DNA from: a virus
Taxonomy: Duplodnaviria > Heunggongvirae > Uroviricota > Caudoviricetes
IMG/VR virus record: IMGVR_UViG_2563366950_000001
DNA length: 35,797 nt
Reading direction: 5' to 3' (one strand)
Under the pieces are notes generated by a model. That model made no database searches. It had not been told where the DNA came from and saw only the letters and a list, made by a program, of their open reading frames with translations. How positions within the stretch are numbered: position 1 is the first letter of the stretch; every line of letters starts with the position of its first letter. Positions 32,943 through 33,177 of this stretch are shown here, piece after piece. A program made the position numbers and the translations under genes.

Positions 32943-33022
32943 CTCTGCCGCCAATTTGTCGCCATCGTTAAAAAACAGTGCTTCTAACATCATGATTTTA
33001 AACGGCATAAATTTCAGGCAAC

Positions 33023-33065
33023 AAAAAACCCATCAACCTTGAACCGAAATGGCGGGGTTGATGGG
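33023..33065 (-). terminator. rho-independent terminator (minus strand) downstream of the transporter gene
   Basis: Inverted repeat CCCATCAACC / GGTTGATGGG with an A6 run on the plus strand 5' side, which reads as a T-run after the hairpin on the minus strand. Confidence 0.5.
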
Positions 33066-33177
33066 CTCCACAAAATGGGGACATCAAAGAAAAGCAGTGG
33101 CACTAATTAAGACTGATGCCCTGCGGAAAAGTTCTGCGGTTGTGCAAAAAAATTTCATTTTCAGGGCAACTTCAGTT

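Follow-up and report, generated by a model that had tools for sequence, protein, structure and literature searches.

Prophage attachment at the 3' end of the rybB small RNA gene: the right junction of a P2-like prophage between ogr and ybjL

The DNA analyzed here, which we call the window, is the whole 35,797-nt stretch of IMG/VR record IMGVR_UViG_2563366950_000001 (Caudoviricetes). Near its right end, ogr on the left and the host gene ybjL on the right enclose a gap of 235 bp (32943-33177; Table 1). An earlier note on this sequence had placed the end of ogr at 32942 and the end of ybjL, on the opposite strand, at 33178, and both coordinates agreed with the gene calls, the stop codon of ogr being located at 32940-32942. 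The window was 100% identical to the chromosome of Escherichia coli UPEC_U013 (NZ_CP058596.1) in both regions compared, one of 901 bp at the junction and one of 1,063 bp at the window's left end. In the UPEC_U013 record, the prophage of the window is located between rcdA and ybjL and has moved rcdA 33.5 kb away.

Table 1. Features of the prophage, its attachment sites, and the adjoining host DNA (window coordinates; negative values lie to the left of the window in UPEC_U013)
Feature	Position	Strand	Basis or remark
Integrase, 186-type tyrosine recombinase, 343 aa	1-1032	-	Pfam Int_N 2.8e-32, Phage_integrase 6.8e-22; PHROG integrase
Cox/Apl-like excisionase (recombination directionality factor), 73 aa	3118-3339	+	PHROG 575, 9.6e-32
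ogr, last phage gene before attR	32724-32942	+	72 aa; Pfam Ogr_Delta 5e-22; RefSeq annotation
P arm of attR	32943-33006		Phage-derived, between ogr and the repeat; missing from empty sites
Tandem 11-bp arm-type repeats TGCCGCCAATT, TGTCGCCATCG	32946-32967	+	Putative binding sites of the Int N-domain
IHF-like site AATCATGATGTTA, 1 mismatch to WATCAANNNNTTR	32985-32997	-	Weak, pattern match only
attR copy of the 27-bp repeat ATAAATTTCAGGCAACAAAAAACCCAT	33007-33033		Exact repeat in UPEC_U013
Minimal common core AACAAAAAACCCAT, 14 bp	33020-33033		Last 14 nt of RybB; inferred strand-exchange zone
rybB (RybB sRNA), complete	33020-33098	-	Rfam RF00110, 105.3 bits
RybB intrinsic terminator hairpin	33027-33067	-	Rfam consensus structure and minimum-free-energy fold (ViennaRNA)
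rybB promoter region (GAACTT, 16 nt, TCTTA)	33102-33140	-	Host DNA, unaffected by the insertion
ybjL, host gene, aspartate:alanine antiporter family	33178-34863	-	
attL copy of ATAAATTTCAGGCAACAAAAAACCCAT	-474 to -448		UPEC_U013, outside the window
P' arm repeat pair TGCCGCCACTT, TGTCGCCACTT	-352 to -331		Putative arm sites, outside the window

An Rfam scan of the whole window yielded RybB as the sole match above threshold; the match covered model positions 1-79 of 79 (gathering score, 40) and scored the same as rybB of K-12. The K-12 annotation of the gene maps to window positions 33023-33101, and the two genes are identical over the Rfam-defined RNA plus the first three transcribed nucleotides. 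The gene order in K-12 is rcdA-rybB-ybjL, with rybB antisense to rcdA (ybjK). Upstream of the rybB 5' end, the sequence is also identical to that of K-12 and includes the hexamer-spacer-pentamer arrangement given in Table 1, which we take to be the sigma-E-type promoter match of RybB. The gap therefore holds an sRNA gene, predicted from its sequence to be functional, that RefSeq leaves unannotated in UPEC_U013.

The terminator of RybB has a 12-bp stem in which 33027-33038 are paired with 33056-33067, a loop of 17 nt, and a U-run at 33023-33028. The earlier note had recognized a hairpin at 33029-33065 and described it as a host-type terminator. The hairpin is real, but the description was incomplete, as these positions form the 10-bp G/C-rich core of RybB's own terminator stem. 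A simple terminator scan of 32600-33400 reported nothing; this result is uninformative because the loop limit of the scan (3-8 nt) excludes the 17-nt loop of RybB. ARAGORN found no tRNA or tmRNA gene in the window, and hence none overlapping the att core, which excludes the classical integration target and agrees with the earlier proposal of a non-tRNA site. The further proposal that the phage had integrated into plain intergenic DNA flanking ybjL did not hold, since both Rfam and the K-12 annotation identify the target as the 3' end of the rybB sRNA gene, between rcdA and ybjL.

Megablast analysis of positions 32600-33500 against 5,426 complete E. coli genomes matched ogr, the gap, and ybjL throughout in 1115 genomes. 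In nearly all of the others, the match began at query position 408, corresponding to window position 33007, and ran rightwards, which places attR inside the gap as had been claimed. Base-by-base comparison with the empty sites of K-12 and DETEC-E1005 agreed with a junction at 33007. The empty site of K-12 reads ...rcdA-TAG tag ATAAGTTTTAGATAACAAAAAACCCAT caaccttgaacc... and that of DETEC-E1005 reads ...TAG tag ATAAATTTCAGGCAACAAAAAACCCAT caaccttgaacc..., while attR in the window reads ...aaacggc ATAAATTTCAGGCAACAAAAAACCCAT caaccttgaacc... and attL in UPEC_U013 reads ...TAG tag ATAAATTTCAGGCAACAAAAAACCCAT ttatgtaaacggg.... The direct repeat that the earlier note had expected past the left end is present as an exact 27-mer, 448 bp to the left of window position 1, where the int stop codon lies. 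In UPEC_U013, identity of the flanking sequences extends on neither side of the repeat, and the repeat-to-repeat unit is 33,481 bp long. The left copy begins only 3 nt after the rcdA stop codon. The 27-mer is present once at the empty site of DETEC-E1005; the core accordingly flanks the prophage in direct orientation and occurs just once where the site is unoccupied. For annotation, the prophage boundary should be set at 33007/33020-33033 rather than at the end of ogr. About 20% of the complete E. coli genomes are occupied at rybB, which is among the most-used P2-like integration sites in this species.

The corresponding phage attachment site was found in a free phage. In Klebsiella phage KP12, the ogr stop codon, P arm, ATAAATTTCAGACAACAAAAAACCCAT, P' arm, and int are contiguous, and a 212-nt stretch from ogr through the core into the P' arm is 99.1% identical to the reconstructed attP. 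The record of Klebsiella phage 4LV2017 represents a prophage and annotates attL and attR sites of 19-20 bp (CAGGCAACAAAAAACCCAT) that contain the 14-bp core; its attR is followed by the Klebsiella rybB gene (103 bits in Rfam). Rfam detected no RybB in KP12, at attL of UPEC_U013, or on the attL side of 4LV2017, indicating that the phage carries only the 3' tip of rybB. By these comparisons, rybB at attR belongs to the host and retains its original promoter region.

The crossover zone could be delimited with other lysogens. A hybrid attL query, in which a K-12-type left half was joined to the P' arm of the phage, had a 100% match in strain 504239, and 1,114 genomes matched it with at least 80% query coverage. 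In 504239, attL is ATAAGTTTTAGAT-AACAAAAAACCCAT and attR is TTAAATTTCAGGC-AACAAAAAACCCAT; the E. coli W derivative KO11FL has ATAAATTTTAGAT-AACAAAAAACCCAT at attL and again TTAAATTTCAGGC-AACAAAAAACCCAT at attR. Both strains have the host-type allele on the rcdA side and the phage-type allele on the ogr side, and the 14-bp core is the sole unbroken identity between their attL and attR, as it is between attP and the K-12 attB. Because the alleles stay on their own sides, the exchange in these two strains must have taken place in the 14-bp block or at its border. The block, which occurred once in the window versus 0.00 expected by chance, consists of the last 5 nt of the RybB terminator stem and the U-tail (AUGGGUUUUUUGUU on the RNA strand). 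Strand exchange in the prophage of the window is therefore likely to be confined to the same 14 bp, inside the rybB terminator and U-tail, given that this limit is taken from other lysogens and assumes that the same Int and attP act alike.

UPEC_U013 alone does not allow the crossover to be narrowed below 27 bp. The longer identity in this strain arises because its host lineage, which is recognizable by an rcdA 3' allele common to DETEC-E1005, has the 13 bp of the phage downstream of rybB. Some prophage-free E. coli carry the 13 bp of the phage P-arm side (ATAAATTTCAGGC) at 33007-33019; at the same position, K-12 has ATAAGTTTTAGAT and W has ATAAATTTTAGAT, and the allele co-varies with that of the rcdA 3' end. 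The phage-identical 13 bp in prophage-free lineages could mark the host lineage from which attP was derived or an occasional second crossover position.

If the functional core were the whole 27-bp repeat, exchange would also be possible in its left half, downstream of rybB. This reading draws on the identity of all 27 bp between attP and attB in UPEC_U013 and in empty-site strains of its lineage, on the 19-20-bp identity block in Klebsiella, and on the unexplained origin of the 13 extra identical bases. However, the left 13 bp differ at 3-5 positions between attL (host type) and attR (phage type) in 504239 and KO11FL, so that the exchange there occurred to the right of 33019. K-12-type sites with 4 left-half mismatches are evidently used, and 7 of 10 full-length attL rows in an evenly spaced sample were, by a rough estimate, too K-12-like to hold 4 phage-type differences. 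We consider a 27-bp functional core improbable, and the 14-bp core is retained in what follows.

Two other explanations concern the target itself. The junction lies between annotated protein-coding genes, rybB is absent from the RefSeq annotation of the lysogen, and the window has no tRNA, all of which would suit a phage inserted in non-functional intergenic DNA beside the ybjL 3' end, with the hairpin being a host terminator such as that of ybjL. This explanation is highly improbable: the complete RybB match shares 14 nt with the core, the homologous position in K-12 is annotated as rybB, and the hairpin and its U-run are on the minus strand, 77 bp downstream of the ybjL stop codon and inside the RybB transcript. 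Moreover, the same Int/attP module targets rybB in Klebsiella despite a different flanking intergenic sequence. An anonymous target beside ybjL was thus rejected on the Rfam match, the K-12 annotation, and the Klebsiella rybB gene. Since the rybB gene at attR directly adjoins phage DNA, it might alternatively be regarded as phage-borne cargo that accompanied the destruction of the host copy. This idea has next to no probability, as attP holds only the last 14 nt of the gene and the P' arm beyond them diverges completely from rybB, neither KP12 nor the attL side gives a RybB match, and the body and promoter of the attR gene are identical to those of K-12 and of the empty site of the same lineage. 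The attP sequence and the RybB-negative scans of KP12 and attL led us to discard a phage-borne rybB.

We are therefore highly confident that the gap is the attR of a P2-like (Fels-2/186-type) prophage of approximately 33.5 kb that was recombined by Int into the 3' end of rybB. The final 14 nt of rybB (the core, as written on the plus strand) are also present in attP. In the mechanism that we propose, Int, bound to the arm-type repeats of P and P' and to the core, would cleave and exchange strands inside these 14 bp. At attR, rybB retains its promoter, seed region, and stem, its end does not differ in sequence from the original, and the sRNA gene is thus intact after integration. Excision would require Int together with the Cox/Apl-like protein. 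By analogy, the strategy resembles that of phages integrating at tRNA genes, which enter a structured RNA gene at its 3' end and bring a replacement for that end.

The integrase and its putative binding sites fit this scheme. The Int translation contains the R...HxxR...H...Y motifs (ARWRE, HVLRHT, LGHHD, and MRYAHL). Int residues 1-338 are approximately 99% identical to the integrases of Escherichia phage vB_EcoM-813R9 and Klebsiella phage Kp4880-1, which have the same P' arm. The next relatives are 54-56% identical; 186-like phages, such as Yersinia phage vB_YpM_MHG75 and Escherichia phage Cartapus, reach only approximately 54%, and the P2-type phages Wphi and L-413C approximately 38-39%. The repeats on both arms fit the 186-type arm consensus tgccGCCActt (Nilsson et al. 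2011, PMC3448106), and their sequences suggest that they may be bound by Int. In addition to the IHF-like site on the P arm, two similar pattern matches are present on the P' arm at -427 to -396, and these sites could likewise be bound by IHF. The putative excisionase gene belongs to a PHROG family described as 'Cox-like excisionase and repressor' and is divergent from cI.

The region between int and attL differs from that of related prophages. The int genes of KP12, 504239, and KO11FL encode 350 aa, and their 3' ends overlap the P' arm repeats; Int of UPEC_U013 has 343 aa, and insertion of an 89-aa ORF between its gene and the P' arm has made its last 5 residues unlike those of related integrases. 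This ORF (WP_001032044.1; approximately -328 to -59, plus strand) had no Pfam, PHROG, or PADLOC match. A second, tandem element in the 448 bp between int and attL was considered and rejected, since the P' arm beside the core does not differ from that of KP12, 504239, and KO11FL and the additional sequence amounts to one ORF inserted at the int 3' end.

On the int strand, the P' arm beside the core reads AACCCGUUU-ACAU-AAAUGGGUU followed by UUUUGUU. At attL, the duplicated 14 nt would thus join a phage-borne half-hairpin and form a small stem-loop with a U-run, which is probably the int terminator. The predicted hairpin is modest (-9 kcal/mol, z = -1.7). According to this folding model, the 14 nt of the core probably supply the 3' half of a phage hairpin that ends int transcription at attP and attL. 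A more speculative reading, which we regard as doubtful, is that the att system acts as a 'terminator-swap' device in which the same 14 bp form the 3' half of both the RybB and int terminators. If so, integration would exchange the 5' half-stems and change the sequence downstream of rcdA, and the expression of RybB, rcdA, or int in lysogens could be measurably altered.

The rybB gene is a published integration hotspot of P2-like phages (Felsduovirus), with Hochhauser et al. among the sources, and the site described here is a real but ordinary, textbook-style att site at an already known location; it leaves the current understanding of site-specific recombination unchanged. The published P2-like rybB prophages share the target (the rcdA/ybjK-ybjL interval) and the phage type with the prophage of the window, and only the cargo differs, which here comprises a 323-aa ORF, a CI with two HTH domains, a TIGR02391/HEPN-like gene, an acyltransferase, and the extra 89-aa ORF. 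The KO11FL prophage shares its P arm, core, P' arm, and int with the prophage of the window. In the group formed by KP12 (OM835953), 4LV2017 (KY271398), and the Klebsiella genomic island Kpn38RybB (PMC4048246), Int is approximately 99% identical, attP is 97.8-99% identical, and integration into rybB likewise reconstitutes the gene. The Klebsiella systems differ in the host genus and share a shorter identity block with the chromosome (19-20 bp instead of 27 bp). No ORF is inserted in KP12, whose int extends into the P' arm repeats, or in 4LV2017, whose int is directly beside the P' arm.

Phage 186, which integrates at tRNA-Ile, and Fels-2/SopE-phi, which integrate at ssrA, have the same Int type and tgccGCCActt arm repeats (PMC3448106). 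They are also alike in the CI/CII/Fil/Cox-Apl region and in replacing the 3' end of a structured RNA gene; however, the target here is the terminator of an Hfq-type sRNA, neither a tRNA nor a tmRNA. At 50-110 nt, the identity blocks quoted for the tRNA-Met prophages PhiESP and PhiKPN (PMC3448106) are longer than the present one. Nilsson et al. (2011) assigned PhiECO1 (E. coli HS), PhiECO2, PhiECO3, and PhiSEN1 (S. Typhi) a single integration-site identity, and the coordinates of PhiECO3 (CFT073, 908870-942351) and the other E. coli prophages seem to be consistent with the rybB locus. The 3' ends or flanks of other sRNA genes also serve as attB, namely cyaR for P2-type elements, including the ogr-D' remnant in K-12 (PMC3032704, Table 2), and the sdsR/ryeB locus of Salmonella for temperate phages (PMC3333887); these systems differ from the present one in the sRNA, the specificity group of the integrase, and the core sequence.

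Prophages at rybB are known to carry defence genes that vary from one prophage to another, examples being retron Ec86 of E. coli B and the hotspot #29 systems, and exact att coordinates help to delimit and compare such cargos. In the window, a 323-aa ORF with coiled-coil and transmembrane character is located between int and cI (1119-2090, minus strand); it was assigned to PHROG 2628 (unknown function) with a weak DUF2207_C match and gave no PADLOC match. The same slot contains HEPN and GmrSD genes in the rybB prophage of 504239 and a KAP P-loop NTPase gene in that of KO11FL, which suggests a site for variable cargo or defence genes. The adjacent CI repressor (2103-3029, minus strand) has 308 aa, with two tandem Phage_CI_repr HTH domains and one CI_C domain. 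CI of the homologous KO11FL prophage has 187 aa, and the longer protein looks like the product of an internal duplication of the DNA-binding domain.

A three-gene block adjoining the portal gene (8994-11354, plus strand) comprises 66-aa and 260-aa ORFs without a family match and a gene for a 383-aa TIGR02391/Hypoth_Ymh protein, whose N-terminal part matched PADLOC PD-Lambda-3_B (2.4e-14) and Aga_HEPN. On this match, the block is a candidate anti-phage system in a slot of the P2 'old/tin' type. A 343-aa acyltransferase gene (Acyl_transf_3; 24551-25582, minus strand) is inserted in the reverse orientation between the genes for tail-fibre assembly and the tail sheath and is likely a moron that modifies surface polysaccharide. 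The rybB prophage of 504239 (NZ_CP025859.1, 4581500-4625000) is degraded: ISCro1 (IS66 family) splits its portal gene, and a deletion fuses a remnant of the capsid gene to a remnant of the D gene; attL, attR, int, and ogr are intact.
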